From the NCBI GenBank assembly GCA_041394025.1, contig JAWKJA010000002.1, positions 1,272,021-1,336,020 on the forward strand: a DNA stretch of 64,000 nucleotides. The letters run 5' to 3'. Numbering within the stretch: the stretch's first letter is position 1; each line of letters opens with the position of its first letter. The DNA is from Acidimicrobiia bacterium (GTDB lineage Bacteria > Actinomycetota > Acidimicrobiia > IMCC26256 > JAOSJL01). A program made the translations under genes and the position numbers. The notes below the pieces were generated by a model. It worked only from the letters and a program-made list of their open reading frames with translations, searched no databases and had not been told where the DNA came from. Below are positions 46,118 through 51,272 of the stretch, piece by piece.

Positions 46118-46624
46118 TCAGTCTCCCTCGCCCGGCTCCCCTCGCAGGTGTGCGGAAAAGATCACGAGGTCGGTCGGTTCCCCCGAGACGTAGACCTCGT
46201 TCCTGAGCTGGCCGCGCCTTCTCCAGATTCCCGACACGTCGCGCGGGGCGTGCGCCTCGGGAACCTTGCCGATGAGCGTCCGGAGTTCGAGGAGATCCGA
46301 GGCGACCCGTGTGAGCTCGTCGAGCAGCGCCCCACCGATCCCCTTGCCACGCTCCGCCTGAGACACGGCGACGAACGGCTCGCCGACGAGTTCGTAGTTG
46401 TACGAGGACGTGAGTCGGCCGAAACCCACCGGCATGTCGTCGTCACCGAGCGTCGCGACGTAGAGAGCGAGGCATCCGGTCCAGAGGAGCGTGAGGAACT
46501 CGGCGTCGCTCGGGACCCGCCGCCGGCAGAAGGAGAACGGGAAGACGTCGTCCTCCAGGACGATGTCGTGGATTCCCTCGTAGTGGTGCTCGGCGGCCGG
46601 CCCGATCTGCACGTCGGCTGTCAT
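46118..46624 (-). CDS. GNAT-family N-acyltransferase (second of two)
   Basis: Starts MTADVQIGPAAEHH within track ORF 46118..46879. Acyl-CoA pocket-like QAERGKGIGGALLDEL. ATGA overlap with the upstream GNAT stop. Confidence 0.75.
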   Translation of the reverse strand: MTADVQIGPAAEHHYEGIHDIVLEDDVFPFSFCRRRVPSDAEFLTLLWTGCLALYVATLGDDDMPVGFGRLTSSYNYELVGEPFVAVSQAERGKGIGGALLDELTRVASDLLELRTLIGKVPEAHAPRDVSGIWRRRGQLRNEVYVSGEPTDLVIFSAHLRGEPGEGD

Positions 46625-47196
46625 GGATCCCCCGGTCGCCCAACGCCGTCCTTCCACGCCTGCCAATGCTCGCGAGTGGTCGCCACGAGAAGCAGGTCGT
46701 CCCAGGTGCCGTCGGAATAGACCATCGACGGCACCTCGGCCTCCACCTCGAACAGGCGCCCAGCTCCGCGTGCCGCCTTGCCGGCGTGCGTCGCACGCTC
46801 GACGACGCCCTGGACCTTGTTGACGGGCCACGTTCGAAAGGCCCAGTTGATGGCGAGCCCCGTTCCCTCCATCGGCCATCCCGCATTGCGGACCTCGGGT
46901 AGGTGGGCGACGGCGTAGAACACCCGACGGTCTGCCAGGTTGAGGCCGAGGAAGTTGACGATTCCCACGTCGCGGTCACCTCTGTTGGAACAGACGACGA
47001 ACGCAGCGTCGGTCGCACCGATCATGATGTCGTACGCGTCCTGACGCGATGGGGTTCGTGGCTGGTAGCGCCACTGACGAGCGACCACCGGGTCGGATGT
47101 GAGCGTGCGGGCCAACTCGCGATCATCCTCGCAGGCGGGTCGCAGATGGGCGACACGTCCTCGGAGGTCGACCGGGTCGGATTCGCTTTCTGTCAC
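46621..47196 (-). CDS. GNAT-family N-acyltransferase (RimJ/RimL-like, first of two)
   Basis: About 191 aa from the GTG at 47196 (GTGA overlap with the ACP stop). ...VAHLRPACEDDRELARTLTSDPVVARQW...GWPMEGTGLAINWAF... pattern of the Acetyltransf_3-like type. Confidence 0.7.
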   Translation of the reverse strand: MTESESDPVDLRGRVAHLRPACEDDRELARTLTSDPVVARQWRYQPRTPSRQDAYDIMIGATDAAFVVCSNRGDRDVGIVNFLGLNLADRRVFYAVAHLPEVRNAGWPMEGTGLAINWAFRTWPVNKVQGVVERATHAGKAARGAGRLFEVEAEVPSMVYSDGTWDDLLLVATTREHWQAWKDGVGRPGDP

Positions 47197-47472: not shown

Positions 47473-49659
47473 TCACTCACGCTTTCCGAGTCGGTAGCCG
47501 GCGACCGATCCGAGCTCGTCGGCCGAGAGGCACACGACGTCCTCGGAACCGCCGGCGGAGTAGCTCGCCATGACGGGAATCAGGGGAGCCATTGCCCCGT
47601 ACGCGGACGGAACCGGGACGGTGTCGAACGCCGTCTCCTGCCATTCGTGTGTGTACACGGTGGCGGCCGTTGCCGGCTCCAGGGCCCCGGCGATCCCTTC
47701 GTAGGGCGTGGGGTCCGAGGTGGGTTTCCAGCCGTCGCGGTCGAAACAGCTGCGCATCGCAATCCGCTTCAGGAGCGGGCCGTCGCTGCGGGCATCGTTC
47801 GTGAGAACGACCGCAGCGACGCCGTGGAAGCCGACATCAGGGAAACGTCGTGCGTCGGGCTTCGCCGGGTCGTCGTGGAGGTACCCGGCATCCATGTCGG
47901 CTCCGGCAACGACCATGCCGTCGACCACGCCGGTGGCCACGAGGTGGCGGGCGTACTCGAGCGCCCCGATCGCACCGTTGCGCCCGGCCGTGAACGTGAG
48001 CAGCGGGCCCGTCAGGCCGCAGGCCTGGGCAGCGGTTCCCGCGGCCGCCGTGACGACGAGCCTCGGGAAGATCGCCGGGTTCGGTGTACGTCCCCGCGTG
48101 ATCGCCCTGTGGAGCTTCTCGTAGGAATCGACGGGACCCTTCTCCGTGGCTATCGCCAGACCCCATCCCGTCGCCGCCGGAGAGATCTCGGTCCCGTCGA
48201 GGGCGTCCGCCGCCTCCAGGGATCCCGACACCGCCGTCAGGACCCGGCGACTCAACTGGTCGAGCCGGATCCACTCGTGGGGCGGCACGAGGGGGTTCTC
48301 GTCAACGTCGCCCACGCCCACGATCGGGGGCCACGCTTCGAGGAGAGCGCCGGGGAGAAGGTCGTGGGCCACACTGACGGATGCTGACGCACCCGCGACC
48401 GAGACGCGCTCCTCGGGTTCGGCACTCGCCGACCGGCGATCGACATCCGCCTCGGGACCCAGACACACCAGCGCTGAGTCGTGGCCACCGAACGCCTGGT
48501 TGATGGTGACACCGGCGACACGGTCAGGAGGCAGCTTCGACTCCCCGTCGAGCACGAGTCGGCCGTGACCGACGAGCAGGTCGTCGCGCTGACGCTCGTG
48601 TGGTCGCGCCGTGGCTGTCGGCGGCGCGACCCCGTCGCCGAGTGCGCGCAGGGTGACGATCAGCTCGAGCGCACCCGCTGCGCCGAGACCGTGGCCTGTC
48701 GCACCTTTGATCCCCGATGCGAGAGCTCCCGACGGGAGCACTCGGCTCAACAGGTCGAACTCGGCCGCATCGTTCAGCGCCGTGCCGGTTCCGTGGACGT
48801 TCACGTAGCCGATGTCGGAGTCGGAGACGCCCGATGCACTCAGTGCCTGCCGGATGGCGCGTTCGACACCGGCACCTGTGGGCTCGGGCGCCGTCGGATG
48901 GTGGGCGTCGCTCGTGAGGGCGTCGCCGACGAGGAAGCCGCGACCTCGTGCCTGGTCGGGTAGAGCGGAGACGGGAGCGAGGATCAGGGCGCCTGCTCCT
49001 TCTCCCAGAGTGAGACCGTCCGACGCGTCGAAGGGCGCGGTGGGCTCCGACGCGTAGGCACCGAGCATCTCGAATCCCCACGCCGAAAAGGGCGTGTACT
49101 CCTCGGCGCCGCAGACGATGGCGGCCGGGACCTGACCCGACCGGATGAGCGACGCGGCGACCGACGTCGCCGTGGCTCCCGACGAGCACGCAGTGTTCAC
49201 GGTGAGACACGGCCCCTCGATGTCGAAGGCCGCGCCGATCGAGGTGGCGATGCCGTGGAACAGGTCGACGCCCTCGATGGACAGCTGCGGGTCGAAGACG
49301 TCGCCTCCGGTGAGGTCCCACTCGGTGCGGACTCCCGCGCTGGTTCCGACCACGACCGCCGCTCGGCGGAAATCGTCCACCCACGACGCTGCCCCGCTAC
49401 GGGGTCGGGTACGCGCTGCGGCGTCCACGAAGGCCTCACCGACCGAGCGGCAGGCCATGGCAACGACGCGCGACTCGATGGCGCCGGGGGACCGTGCGTC
49501 GGCGTCGAGTGGAGGAACACGCGCCACGTGCCGGTCGCCATCCCATGAAACCGCTGTGCGTCCCTCAGCGAGGGCCGACCATGACGCGTCGGCCGTCGGA
49601 CCGACGGGCGTGACGGCCCCGTATCCGAGCACGGCCAAAGGCGCGACGCGTCGCGTCAT
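47473..49659 (-). CDS. fused beta-ketoacyl synthase / Cys-less KS-like (chain-length-factor-like) protein
   Basis: 728 aa. The N-half has TVNTACSSG (Cys about 158), SDAHHPTAP, VNVHGTGT and GATGHGLGAAG. The C-half has the aligned LTFTAGRNGAIGALEYARHLV with no Cys, and VVAGADM. Confidence 0.8.
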   Translation of the reverse strand: MTRRVAPLAVLGYGAVTPVGPTADASWSALAEGRTAVSWDGDRHVARVPPLDADARSPGAIESRVVAMACRSVGEAFVDAAARTRPRSGAASWVDDFRRAAVVVGTSAGVRTEWDLTGGDVFDPQLSIEGVDLFHGIATSIGAAFDIEGPCLTVNTACSSGATATSVAASLIRSGQVPAAIVCGAEEYTPFSAWGFEMLGAYASEPTAPFDASDGLTLGEGAGALILAPVSALPDQARGRGFLVGDALTSDAHHPTAPEPTGAGVERAIRQALSASGVSDSDIGYVNVHGTGTALNDAAEFDLLSRVLPSGALASGIKGATGHGLGAAGALELIVTLRALGDGVAPPTATARPHERQRDDLLVGHGRLVLDGESKLPPDRVAGVTINQAFGGHDSALVCLGPEADVDRRSASAEPEERVSVAGASASVSVAHDLLPGALLEAWPPIVGVGDVDENPLVPPHEWIRLDQLSRRVLTAVSGSLEAADALDGTEISPAATGWGLAIATEKGPVDSYEKLHRAITRGRTPNPAIFPRLVVTAAAGTAAQACGLTGPLLTFTAGRNGAIGALEYARHLVATGVVDGMVVAGADMDAGYLHDDPAKPDARRFPDVGFHGVAAVVLTNDARSDGPLLKRIAMRSCFDRDGWKPTSDPTPYEGIAGALEPATAATVYTHEWQETAFDTVPVPSAYGAMAPLIPVMASYSAGGSEDVVCLSADELGSVAGYRLGKRE

Positions 49660-49718
49660 CAGGGCGCGCTATTCGTGGAAGCCGCCGACGCCTCCGGGGA
49701 AATCAGGGACTTCCCTTC

Positions 49719-49916
49719 TCAGAGGATCTTGCACTGCCACACGCCGTTGAACTCGTCGGTGCAGTAGAGCTCGCAGCCCGAGGCGAGCACCGCGATACCG
49801 ACGGTGGCGGCGGCGAGCGTGGCGCGGTTCCTGAAGCGTCGACGCCGGGTCAGAGCCTGATCGTCGCCGGTACCGGTCGAGAACCTGCCCTCGGTGGTCT
49901 TCGTTCCCTGTGTCAC
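49719..49916 (-). CDS. small predicted twin-arginine lipoprotein / exported Cys-rich peptide (65-aa precursor, 18-aa mature part)
   Basis: The GTG at 49916 is preceded by a G-run. TRRRRFRNRATLAAATVGIAVLASGC matches an RRxF Tat motif plus h-region plus lipobox. The remainder is CELYCTDEFNGVWQCKIL. Third-position GC is high. The longer track start at 50000 falls inside the predicted promoter. Confidence 0.5.
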   Translation of the reverse strand: MTQGTKTTEGRFSTGTGDDQALTRRRRFRNRATLAAATVGIAVLASGCELYCTDEFNGVWQCKIL

Positions 49917-49981
49917 GTCGTGACCCCCCGCGCCGTCAACCGTACGGTTCCGACGCTGCTTTGCGTGTTGGACGGATTCGG

Positions 49982-50010
49982 ACTCTAGACACCACACCAC
50001 GCGCTGTCAA
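49982..50010 (-). promoter_or_regulatory. near-consensus sigma-70-type promoter for the peptide/KS/ACP/GNAT operon
   Basis: Minus strand reads TTGACA (50010..50005), a 17-nt spacer, then TAGAGT (49987..49982). It lies in a locally AT-richer intergenic stretch. Confidence 0.55.
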
Positions 50011-50096
50011 CCCTTTGACGCTCATAGAGAGGTTCTGTCCGGATTATGCGGAAAGGCCGTGCTGTACGGGTTCGGGCCACGGTCCCACGGCCCACC

Positions 50097-51272
50097 TCAG
50101 GCGAGCAGCTCCCCGGCGATGATCCCCTTGCGCACCTCGGTGGTGCCGGCGCCGATCTCGAGCAGCTTCGTGGCCCGGAACAGCCGGTTCACCTCGGTCT
50201 CCCAGATGTAACCGTTGCCACCGTGCACCTGCACCGCGTTGTCGAGCACCTTGTTGCACATGTCGGCGCAGTACATCACCGACGCCGCCGTGCGGGCGTG
50301 GATCTCGCCGTGGCCTGCGTCGGTGGGACCGATGCCGTCGCACTCGGCGAGCACCTGCCAGCAGAACGTCTTCATGGTCTCGACCCAGACGTACATGTCG
50401 GCCAGGCGCGACTGCACCATCTGGAAACTGCCGATGGGCTGGCCGAACTGCTCGCGCGATCCGGCGTAGTCCACCGACAGCTCGAGGGCACGTTCGGCGA
50501 TTCCGACGTTGATGGGGGCGATCATGGCGCGCTCCAGATCGAGGCCGCTCATCACCACCCGGTGCCCCTGGTCGACGGTGCCGACCACGTTCTCCACCGG
50601 GACGACCATGTCGTCGAACACGAGCTCCGCGGTCTGGCTGCCCCGAAAGCCCATCTTCTCGAGCTTCTGGGCCACCGTGAAGCCCGGGGTGTCGGCCTCG
50701 ACGACGAACGCCGTGATGCCCTTCGACCCCGAATCGGGTTGCGTCTTGGCGTAGAGGAGACAGATGTCGGCCACGGGTCCGTTCGTGATGAACAGCTTCG
50801 AGCCGTTGATCACGAAGGTGTCGCCGTCGCGCACCGCTCGCGTACGCATCGAGCCCAGGGCATCGGATCCGGCGCCCGGCTCGGTCAGGCCGAGACAGCC
50901 GACGAGCTCGCCGGAGCACAGGCCGGGAAGGTACTTCTCCTTGACCTGCTCGCTCGCGTTGGCCGCGATGTTGTTGGCGCACAGGTTGTCGTGCGCGACC
51001 CAGCTCAGCCCGAACGCATGGTTCCAGCGCGAGAACGCCTGGAGCACCAGGCCCGACTCGAGCATCCCCATCCCCGCTCCGCCGTAGCGCTCCGGGATCG
51101 TGGCCCCCAGGAAGCCCTGCTTCCCGAGCCGCTCGAAGATGCCCGTGGGCCACCACTCGTCGTTGTCCATGCGCTCGGCGAGCGGGTAGAGCTCGGCGCG
51201 CGCGAAGCGGTCGGCCTCGTCGAGGAGGGCGGACTGCTCGTCGGTGAGGGCGAAGCGGCTGGTGCCGGCCAT
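50097..51272 (-). CDS. acyl-CoA dehydrogenase (isovaleryl-CoA dehydrogenase-like)
   Basis: 391 aa, ...GLTEPGAGSDA..., with C-terminal ...RLFRATKLLEIGAGTTEVRKGIIAGELL. Context of carboxylase and hydratase genes. Confidence 0.88.
   Translation of the reverse strand: MAGTSRFALTDEQSALLDEADRFARAELYPLAERMDNDEWWPTGIFERLGKQGFLGATIPERYGGAGMGMLESGLVLQAFSRWNHAFGLSWVAHDNLCANNIAANASEQVKEKYLPGLCSGELVGCLGLTEPGAGSDALGSMRTRAVRDGDTFVINGSKLFITNGPVADICLLYAKTQPDSGSKGITAFVVEADTPGFTVAQKLEKMGFRGSQTAELVFDDMVVPVENVVGTVDQGHRVVMSGLDLERAMIAPINVGIAERALELSVDYAGSREQFGQPIGSFQMVQSRLADMYVWVETMKTFCWQVLAECDGIGPTDAGHGEIHARTAASVMYCADMCNKVLDNAVQVHGGNGYIWETEVNRLFRATKLLEIGAGTTEVRKGIIAGELLA

Follow-up and report, generated by a model that had tools for sequence, protein, structure and literature searches.

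Peptides made by the ribosome and then modified post-translationally (RiPPs) that end up anchored by diacylglycerol (DAG) have been described as DAG-RiPPs, with lipo-DybA and NedA as examples; in the part of the published account drawn on here, short precursors with a signal peptidase II (SPII) signal are modified in the cytoplasm by oxidative enzymes that depend on multinuclear non-heme iron (MNIO enzymes) and triacylated by the general lipoprotein pathway, and the producers belong to Gram-negative phyla (PNAS 2026, PMC13056109). In a second group of lipidated RiPPs, comprising the goadvionins, lipolanthines and selidamides, a small peptide gene adjoins chain-building genes of the ketosynthase (KS) and acyl carrier protein (ACP) type and genes for Gcn5-related N-acetyltransferases (GNATs), according to the sections consulted (PMC8784127, PMC11685415). 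Ordinary lipoproteins carry a lipobox with the textbook form L(-3)-A/S(-2)-G/A(-1)-C(+1), and about 20% of those of Streptomyces are put down to the twin-arginine translocation (Tat) pathway in the passages available (PMC4941574). Very small exported peptides are readily mis-annotated and rarely tied to function. Here we compare with these systems a 65-residue open reading frame (ORF) on the minus strand of a 64,000-nucleotide stretch of DNA (the window) from an Acidimicrobiia bacterium (assembly GCA_041394025.1, contig JAWKJA010000002.1). Marked by a coding signature, equipped with a ribosome site and a promoter, and covered in RNA libraries, the ORF heads an orphan operon for chain building and acyl transfer in an uncultured-type wastewater bacterium, and its product is predicted to be the precursor of an 18-residue lipopeptide.

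On the basis of codon statistics, the ribosome-binding duplex, a promoter of its own and RNA-library contigs, 49719..49916 is very probably a real gene. The first-pass annotation had given the frame with no strand, and translation of the minus strand returns exactly its 65 residues and a stop. The three codon positions have G+C contents of 0.56/0.58/0.86; an equally high third-position value (GC3) occurs across the ORF in just one other frame, + frame 1, and that frame is broken by two stops. Under a codon model trained on 987 long ORFs of the organism's own genome, which is also the source of the genome-wide counts given below, the log-likelihood of the ORF is 20.5, so that 35% of 5000 true in-frame windows of the same length (65 codons; mean 21.8 +/- 12.8) score lower, and the score is matched by 1.2% of 10000 off-frame windows. 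Calculated per codon, it is attained by 16 (0.26%) of 6209 nested, spurious ORFs with 50-100 codons and, outside long genes, by 50 of 1846 small ORFs. The strongest codon signal within the ORF falls on the 18 codons of the predicted mature part (11.0, or 0.61 per codon).

In its longest form the ORF extends up to a GTG at 50000 and would encode 93 aa. The protein is on record three times, as 65 aa in NCBI (on a contig of 1,605,800 bases), as 93 aa in JGI/IMG and as 93 aa in Logan (9 contigs), the versions being identical across their shared part; the expectation that automated annotation would miss the gene or mis-start it at 50000 was thus only half right, NCBI listing the 65-aa form. The start at GTG 49916 is favoured over GTG 50000 because the latter sits within the promoter spacer, the extension 49917-50000 has a codon score of -1.0 and neither of the two RNA-library contigs described below reaches 50000. 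The Shine-Dalgarno-like hexamer ahead of 49916 forms a duplex of -10.1 kcal/mol with the 3' tail of the genome's own 16S rRNA; among 5000 random ATG/GTG sites 2.5% attain this strength, as do 8% of 163 gene starts that are unambiguous, and GTG 50000 has -5.0. Starting at a CTG, codon 22, would leave a short n-region of the classical kind; this was judged less likely than the GTG with its strong Shine-Dalgarno pairing. Upstream, TTGACA-17-TAGAGT (50010..49982) is the sole promoter-like site in 49500-50200, with 10/12 matches; in 50 shuffles the mean number of such sites was 0.0.

The window is almost fully covered in metagenome runs of wastewater and activated sludge from several studies and in metatranscriptome runs, and two RNA runs and two DNA runs were mapped on the ORF region. 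Two metatranscriptome contigs, 49131..49969 (839 nt, depth 27.2) and 49192..49934 (743 nt, depth 13.1), each with 0 differences, span the entire ORF together with the 5' end of the KS gene, and their ends fit a transcript that starts just downstream of the -10 box. The first-pass annotation had named a transcription start downstream of 49916 as counting against the peptide; the RNA-library contigs do not bear this out, since they extend upstream of that position. Bins 50020-50080 are uncovered in both RNA runs while a DNA-run contig crosses 49827..50088, but the RNA gap at 49970-50100 is a weak hint only, one study standing behind both RNA runs and contigs leaving holes. From the acyl-CoA dehydrogenase gene upstream, a single RNA run yielded a single exact contig (depth 3.2). 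Directly 3' of the stop of that gene lies an imperfect G+C-rich inverted repeat (GGGCCGTGG..CCGTGGCCC, 50075-50094, minus strand) with no T-run, which may end the dehydrogenase transcript ahead of the promoter of the peptide operon; it was read by eye and is unlisted by the terminator scan.

The predicted signal region comprises a charged n-region of 31 residues, an h-region (ATLAAATVGIAVLASG) of 16 uncharged residues, inside the range of about 7-22 usual for lipoprotein precursors, and a lipobox, and in agreement with the earlier reading RRRRF is followed by this uncharged Ala/Val/Gly stretch, by L-A-S-G-C and by a mature part of 18 residues with three cysteines. When 44056 open frames of the genome were scanned for a charged n-region, a hydrophobic h-region and a lipobox, 186 matched, 152 of them coding-like and 34 noncoding-like; with RRx[hydrophobic] added, 60 coding-like frames stood against 3 noncoding-like ones. 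Since the matches are mostly coding-like, the signal pattern is no by-product of GC-rich frames. In a reference set of 134 lipoprotein-like signals (coding-like, mature part of at least 90 aa), position -3 is held by Ala in 56, by Leu in 34 and by Val in 26, Gly stands at -1 in 27, Ser at -2 in 9 and Leu at -4 in 32, and the h-regions are 10-21 residues long. The lipobox of the small ORF, L(-4)-A(-3)-S(-2)-G(-1)-C, fits the textbook consensus at -2 and -1 and has Ala instead of Leu at -3; being within the usage of the 134 signals, both L-A-S-G-C and the 16-residue h-region are ordinary for the organism. We also take L-A-S-G-C to fit the broader PROSITE and G+LPP patterns. Genes for the processing machinery score above their cut-offs, with Lgt at 209 bits, two LspA at 118 and 79 bits and Lnt at 236 bits, and the lipoprotein signal predicted in the first-pass annotation therefore stands as a prediction that suits both the genome's lipobox usage and its enzymes. 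The two lipoprotein signal peptidase (Peptidase_A8) paralogues lie at C2:807593-808000 and C3:105748-106137 of the 3.05 Mb genome, and no gene for Omp85, the outer-membrane assembly protein, was found in it.

The choice of export route is less clear-cut. Tat signals follow the consensus S/T-R-R-x-F-L-K. The twin-arginine signal claimed earlier does have an RRxF core, in T-R-R-R-R-F; what follows the Phe is R-N-R, not L-K, and no Tat-signal model exceeded its threshold. At E values up to 10 the sole match in Pfam and NCBIfam is UCR_Fe-S_N, the Rieske Tat signal (E 0.02, 14.7 bits, below the cut-off of 24), and the general Tat-signal families in these collections gave no match to the ORF. RRx[hydrophobic] is present in 60 of the 152 lipoprotein-like signals of the genome and so discriminates poorly, and the clear Tat-type lipoproteins read SRRKFL, SRRSFL, TRRGFL and TRRRFL. 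TatC is encoded (224 bits, above cut-off), and by analogy Tat routing is plausible because about a fifth of Streptomyces lipoproteins are stated to use it in the passages available (PMC4941574); Sec is also possible.

After Cys48 the predicted mature part continues as ELYCTDEFNGVWQCKIL, and it is far shorter than typical lipoproteins, as had been noted: two shorter pattern matches in the genome are internal pieces of long frames, and the next-shortest of the N-terminal lipoprotein candidates have at least 50 residues. A single-sequence AlphaFold2 model, of low confidence, places a helix at residues 18-46 and strands at 50-55 and 59-64 around F56-N57-G58, in a register that sets Cys52 opposite Cys62. 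On this model Cys52 and Cys62 probably form a disulfide that staples a small beta-hairpin around the F-N-G turn.

These features can be arranged in a five-step chain that we regard, taken whole, as about evenly poised between right and wrong. Transcription would start at the gene's own promoter, of the sigma-70 type, and appears to continue into the genes for the KS-KS' fusion, the ACP and the GNATs (Table 1); translation from GTG 49916, which taken by itself is likely, would give a 65-residue precursor of the prolipoprotein type, and its Arg-rich n-region and Ala/Val-rich h-region would carry it across the membrane via Sec or Tat. Lgt would then add diacylglycerol to Cys48, LspA would cut ahead of Cys48 and Lnt would acylate the amino group so exposed. 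The outcome would be an 18-residue triacylated lipopeptide, probably disulfide-bridged, displayed on the membrane's outer face; in this bacterium the search for Omp85 gave no gene.

Several observations weigh against this chain. The h-region has a hydropathy of 1.77, as against 2.38 +/- 0.45 in the lipoprotein-like signals of the genome, and is thus 1.4 standard deviations lower; Glu at +2 is rare among those signals (3/134); and a mature part of 18 residues is the shortest among the genome's N-terminal lipoprotein candidates. The mean predicted local distance difference test (pLDDT) score of the AlphaFold2 model is 54.6, and no VKOR-type oxidase that might form the disulfide was found in the genome. 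GC3 is weaker in the first 21 codons (16/21) than in the remainder (41/44). The RNA contigs are unstranded and come from two runs of one study, DNA carry-over is possible and a silent control stretch is lacking. The peptide is an orphan, which leaves neither its translation nor any of its residues with evolutionary support, and its sequence is identical in all strains seen, the RNA and DNA runs mapped showing no divergent strain. The KS is known in three strain versions that differ at two or three residues, which is too little variation for a dN/dS or other estimate of selection on the peptide.

Table 1. Features of the peptide locus, in positions of the window
Feature	Position	Strand	Description and basis
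Small gene	49719..49916	minus	GTG start, 65 residues, TGA stop; coding statistics, NCBI record, RNA-library contigs
Signal region, residues 1-47 (predicted)	49776..49916	minus	n-region ending RRRRFRNR, h-region ATLAAATVGIAVLASG, lipobox L-A-S-G, then Cys48
Predicted mature 18-mer CELYCTDEFNGVWQCKIL, residues 48-65	49722..49775	minus	strongest codon signal; low-confidence AlphaFold2 strands
-35 hexamer TTGACA of the operon promoter	50005..50010	minus	promoter scan
-10 hexamer TAGAGT	49982..49987	minus	17-nt spacer; expected transcription start ~49977-49973
Shine-Dalgarno-like GGGGGG	49924..49929	minus	7 nt ahead of GTG 49916
8-bp stem-loop (GGGAAGUC-CCU-GAUUUCCC)	49697..49715	minus	right after the stop; minimum-energy fold, merely noted since the whole fold has z 0.18
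KS-KS' fusion, 728 aa	47473..49659	minus	ketosynthase and second, Cys-less ketosynthase-like (chain-length-factor-like) domain
ACP, 73 aa	47193..47414	minus	DSL serine motif; ATG 47414, AGGAG 8 nt upstream; PP-binding E 3.9e-4, weak ACP families
GNAT 1 (Acetyltransf_3)	46621..47196	minus	GTG start overlaps ACP stop as GTGA
GNAT 2	46118..46624	minus	ATG start overlaps GNAT 1 stop as ATGA

The alternative that survives best, although we consider it unlikely, is that the ORF is untranslated or functionless, the region serving as 5' leader to the KS operon or at most as a regulatory upstream ORF with an irrelevant peptide, and the likeness to a signal peptide being an accident of a GC-rich frame. 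In its favour, the peptide is conserved nowhere. In a word-indexed search of 5.8 billion proteins, near lengths yielded only the peptide's own cluster, and at longer lengths none of 146 candidates reached E <= 1; among 40 relatives, whose genomes were searched in six frames, the best foreign match had E 0.01 and amounts to signal-like noise, and when 185,579 species genomes were scanned at DNA level with six 8-residue words, 600 stretches matched, no relative among them. The PDB returned 0 hits, and in the ESM Atlas the best feature score was 0.76, below the lead level of 0.9. A leader would also suit the KS gene, whose start at ATG 49659 lacks its own ribosome site (-0.9 kcal/mol) and could receive ribosomes loaded by an upstream ORF; the RNA contigs are no proof of translation, and many long open frames arise in GC-rich genomes. 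Against this stand the rarity of the codon score among spurious nested ORFs, the strong and correctly spaced Shine-Dalgarno pairing, and the scarcity of noncoding-like frames that combine RR, h-region and lipobox, of which the genome has only the three mentioned above. The coding signal is moreover strongest in the 18 mature codons, which an ORF that merely loads ribosomes would not need, and the leader itself gave 0 matches to Rfam at E <= 1 and a minimum-energy fold no better than shuffles (z 0.18).

The small ORF opens a row of genes on one strand and is followed, after a 59-nt gap, by the KS-KS' fusion, the ACP and two GNATs. In the first half of the fusion Cys158, His289 and His323 are invariant, and in the second half TFTAGRNG replaces the TACSSG of ketosynthases; its top NCBIfam models, all below their cut-offs, are PRK09185 and synthases of the fabF type, with the cispentacin subunit AmcF fourth. 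An in-frame TAG stands 12 nt upstream of the KS start, and a GGAGG 33 nt upstream, within a small hairpin of the minimum-energy fold, is too distant to serve it. A frameshifted N-terminal extension of the KS was rejected on account of the differing frames, this TAG and the same start in KS relatives. For the ACP, GNAT 1 and GNAT 2 the longest-ORF starts (47480, 47307 and 46879) are probably too far upstream, and ATG 47414, GTG 47196 and ATG 46624 probably fit translational coupling better. The best solved relatives of GNAT 1 are spermidine N1-acetyltransferases (E 1.9e-6), GNAT 2 found among solved structures one generic acetyltransferase only (E 0.0088), and NCBIfam offered for both only small-molecule acetyltransferases below threshold.

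Beyond the peptide operon the same strand carries the acyl-CoA dehydrogenase gene, which ends at 50097, followed by a divergent TetR gene and genes for a carboxyltransferase, a biotin carboxylase and an enoyl-CoA hydratase; a sugar ATP-binding cassette (ABC) transporter operon lies on the opposite flank. The carboxylase genes could serve leucine-type catabolism or supply extender units for the ketosynthase. In two congeners the flanks are conserved and syntenic, with 77-94% identity for the ABC genes and 65-81% on the other side. The 10.5 kb segment 46062-56558, which holds the peptide operon and the genes from the dehydrogenase to the enoyl-CoA hydratase, is missing from both, and 4.4-5.4 kb of other genes stand in its place, in one of them (G002) genes for a P-type ATPase and for two membrane proteins, the first of these large. 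The operon therefore lies in a species-specific segment.

The KS-KS' fusion belongs, judging by its sequence matches, to a thin, distant and uncharacterised family. In 40 relatives only FabF-like matches to its N-terminal half were found, at up to 41% identity. Its C-terminal half matched 179 proteins at E <= 1e-3 among 1.84 billion representatives, many of them 650-860 aa long, the best foreign match reaching 2.4e-23 and 36% identity. Two motif patterns and a 5-sequence alignment matched 110 stretches in the 185,579 species genomes with no relative of the fusion among them. In a metagenome scan one of the 80 loci kept (L041) covers both halves, at 36% identity; a reading of its ORF list, with no family scan, gives two upstream ORFs, one of them sigma-factor-like, a downstream ORF that resembles aldo-keto reductases, and no ACP, GNAT or peptide in the neighbourhood. 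Among 264 genomes of the order three have KS-KS' matches, two of them being other genomes with weak matches (~1e-10; G155 and G242), and the match in G155 is a KS and chain-length factor pair inside a cluster like those of fatty acid or polyketide synthases, with no such peptide. Since no homologous operon was found anywhere, conservation speaks neither for nor against the peptide.

Somewhat less probable again than an untranslated leader is that the peptide is the substrate of the operon enzymes. The KS-KS' fusion and the ACP would build a chain, a GNAT would transfer it in the cytoplasm from the ACP to the peptide core, for example to Lys63, and the diacylglycerol anchor would follow, possibly via Tat as for cargo already modified, giving a polyketide-plus-DAG hybrid RiPP. 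The layout suits such a product: an ORF that looks like a precursor gene stands at the head, behind a strong ribosome site, the enzymes come next with the ACP and both GNATs translationally coupled, the ORF and the KS gene are joined on an RNA-library contig, and the entire operon is species-specific, as are many biosynthetic clusters. ACP-dependent GNATs that acylate ribosomal peptides are known from goadvionin (GdvG, as cited in PMC8784127 and PMC11685415), GNATs that acylate Lys or Orn side chains of RiPP cores are described for the selidamides (PMC8784127), and the DAG-RiPPs supply, in the text at hand, SPII-signal precursors modified in the cytoplasm before lipidation (PMC13056109). However, the weak likenesses of the two GNATs are to small-molecule acetyltransferases and tie neither to peptides, and a Pfam scan that covered the operon and some flanking genes matched no RiPP recognition element, protease, lanthionine enzyme or MNIO enzyme. 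A KS, an ACP and a GNAT could equally yield an N-acyl amine or an amino-acid lipid, GNATs of the FeeM type being described as ACP-dependent in the relevant section (PMC11685415), and the two distant KS-KS' loci with readable context, L041 and G155, are without such a peptide. A complex prediction for GNAT 1, GNAT 2 and the peptide scored 0.01 against a mark of 0.34, in a run without controls, and so counts on neither side of the question of binding. The link of the peptide to the enzymes, drawn from gene order, is unproven. Its most specific form, in which ACP-dependent GNATs load the KS-KS'/ACP chain onto the core before Tat export and DAG anchoring, so that a doubly lipidated, disulfide-stapled hairpin results, is improbable; it would be the first polyketide/DAG hybrid RiPP and the first routed by Tat, a literature search having found no Tat-routed RiPP precursor in print.

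Equally improbable is a translated product that is not a lipoprotein, either a 65-residue microprotein held by its uncleaved membrane anchor or a soluble peptide freed by signal peptidase I, for although -3 is Ala and not the Leu that is classical in the passages available (PMC4941574), Glu at +2 is rare and A-S-G is possibly an AxA-like site for signal peptidase I, Ala is the commonest -3 residue in the genome's lipoprotein-like signals, an uncharged stretch of 16-17 residues is short for a stable transmembrane helix and the Cys falls exactly at the end of the h-region. Elsewhere in the genome, two neighbouring small lipoprotein-like ORFs (C4:70261-70903 and C4:74251-74656) read …ATGCAWNFE… and …ATGCEWHFE… and have mature parts of 108 and 53 residues; their cleavage regions are similar, and the two may be paralogues in a small family of short lipoproteins.

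Set beside the known systems, the predicted lipopeptide shares something with each. Its precursor resembles the actinobacterial Tat lipoproteins of Streptomyces in having Phe after an Arg pair, an Ala-rich h-region of mild hydrophobicity and a Cys in a lipobox, and the genome encodes TatC, Lgt, Lsp and Lnt. The Streptomyces proteins are folded and ordinary in size, unlike an 18-residue mature part; RRRRF-R-N-R departs from the Tat consensus, and no Tat-signal model scored above threshold. The entericidins of enterobacteria, with precursors of fewer than 70 residues and lipidated mature parts of a few tens of residues, belong to the same size class of very small lipoproteins, but are not known to stand at the head of biosynthetic-looking operons; searches of proteins, PDB and ESM Atlas found nothing similar in sequence to the peptide. 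It is plausible that the peptide is a very small lipoprotein-type peptide of a kind already known, and if it is merely a tiny lipoprotein it would be among the shortest candidates, an 18-residue test case for Lgt, Lsp and Lnt and for the choice between Sec and Tat.

The goadvionins, lipolanthines and selidamides resemble the locus in placing a small peptide gene next to KS/ACP-type chain-building genes and GNATs. In the sections consulted their precursors have soluble leaders (NHLP, Nif11 or lanthipeptide-type), whereas here the N-terminus is a predicted export signal, and their clusters carry enzymes that form lanthionine or avionin (PMC8784127, PMC11685415). Here KS, ACP and GNATs are present, and the genes scanned gave no lanthionine-type match. 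If the operon enzymes do modify the peptide, the product would represent a new hybrid class.

By analogy the DAG-RiPPs are the closest precedent for the small peptide, whatever role it may have. The published cases are tied to MNIO (DUF692) enzymes and to Gram-negative phyla, the accessible text naming neither Actinobacteria nor Tat (PMC13056109), whereas the neighbours here are the KS-KS' fusion, ACP and GNATs, the genome showed no Omp85, and the operon and flanking genes scanned gave no MNIO/DUF692 match. DAG-RiPPs are further marked by cytoplasmic modification of a conserved core motif, and here a conserved core is undefinable without relatives. They are also marked by a precursor lying beside its modifying enzyme; the signal pattern of such a precursor is present here and the enzymes are adjacent and on the same RNA-library contig, their action on the peptide being putative. 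Both consist of a short ribosomal peptide with an N-terminal SPII signal beside cytoplasmic enzymes, and in both an invariant Cys after a hydrophobic stretch is, or here would be, the lipidated N-terminus, more cysteines follow in a short mature part, and Lgt, Lsp and Lnt are, or would be, co-opted, as far as the text at hand describes them (PMC13056109). If the peptide is lipidated, the use of the housekeeping lipoprotein pathway for membrane-bound peptide products would extend both to an enzyme context that is new and to high-GC bacteria that apparently have no outer membrane.

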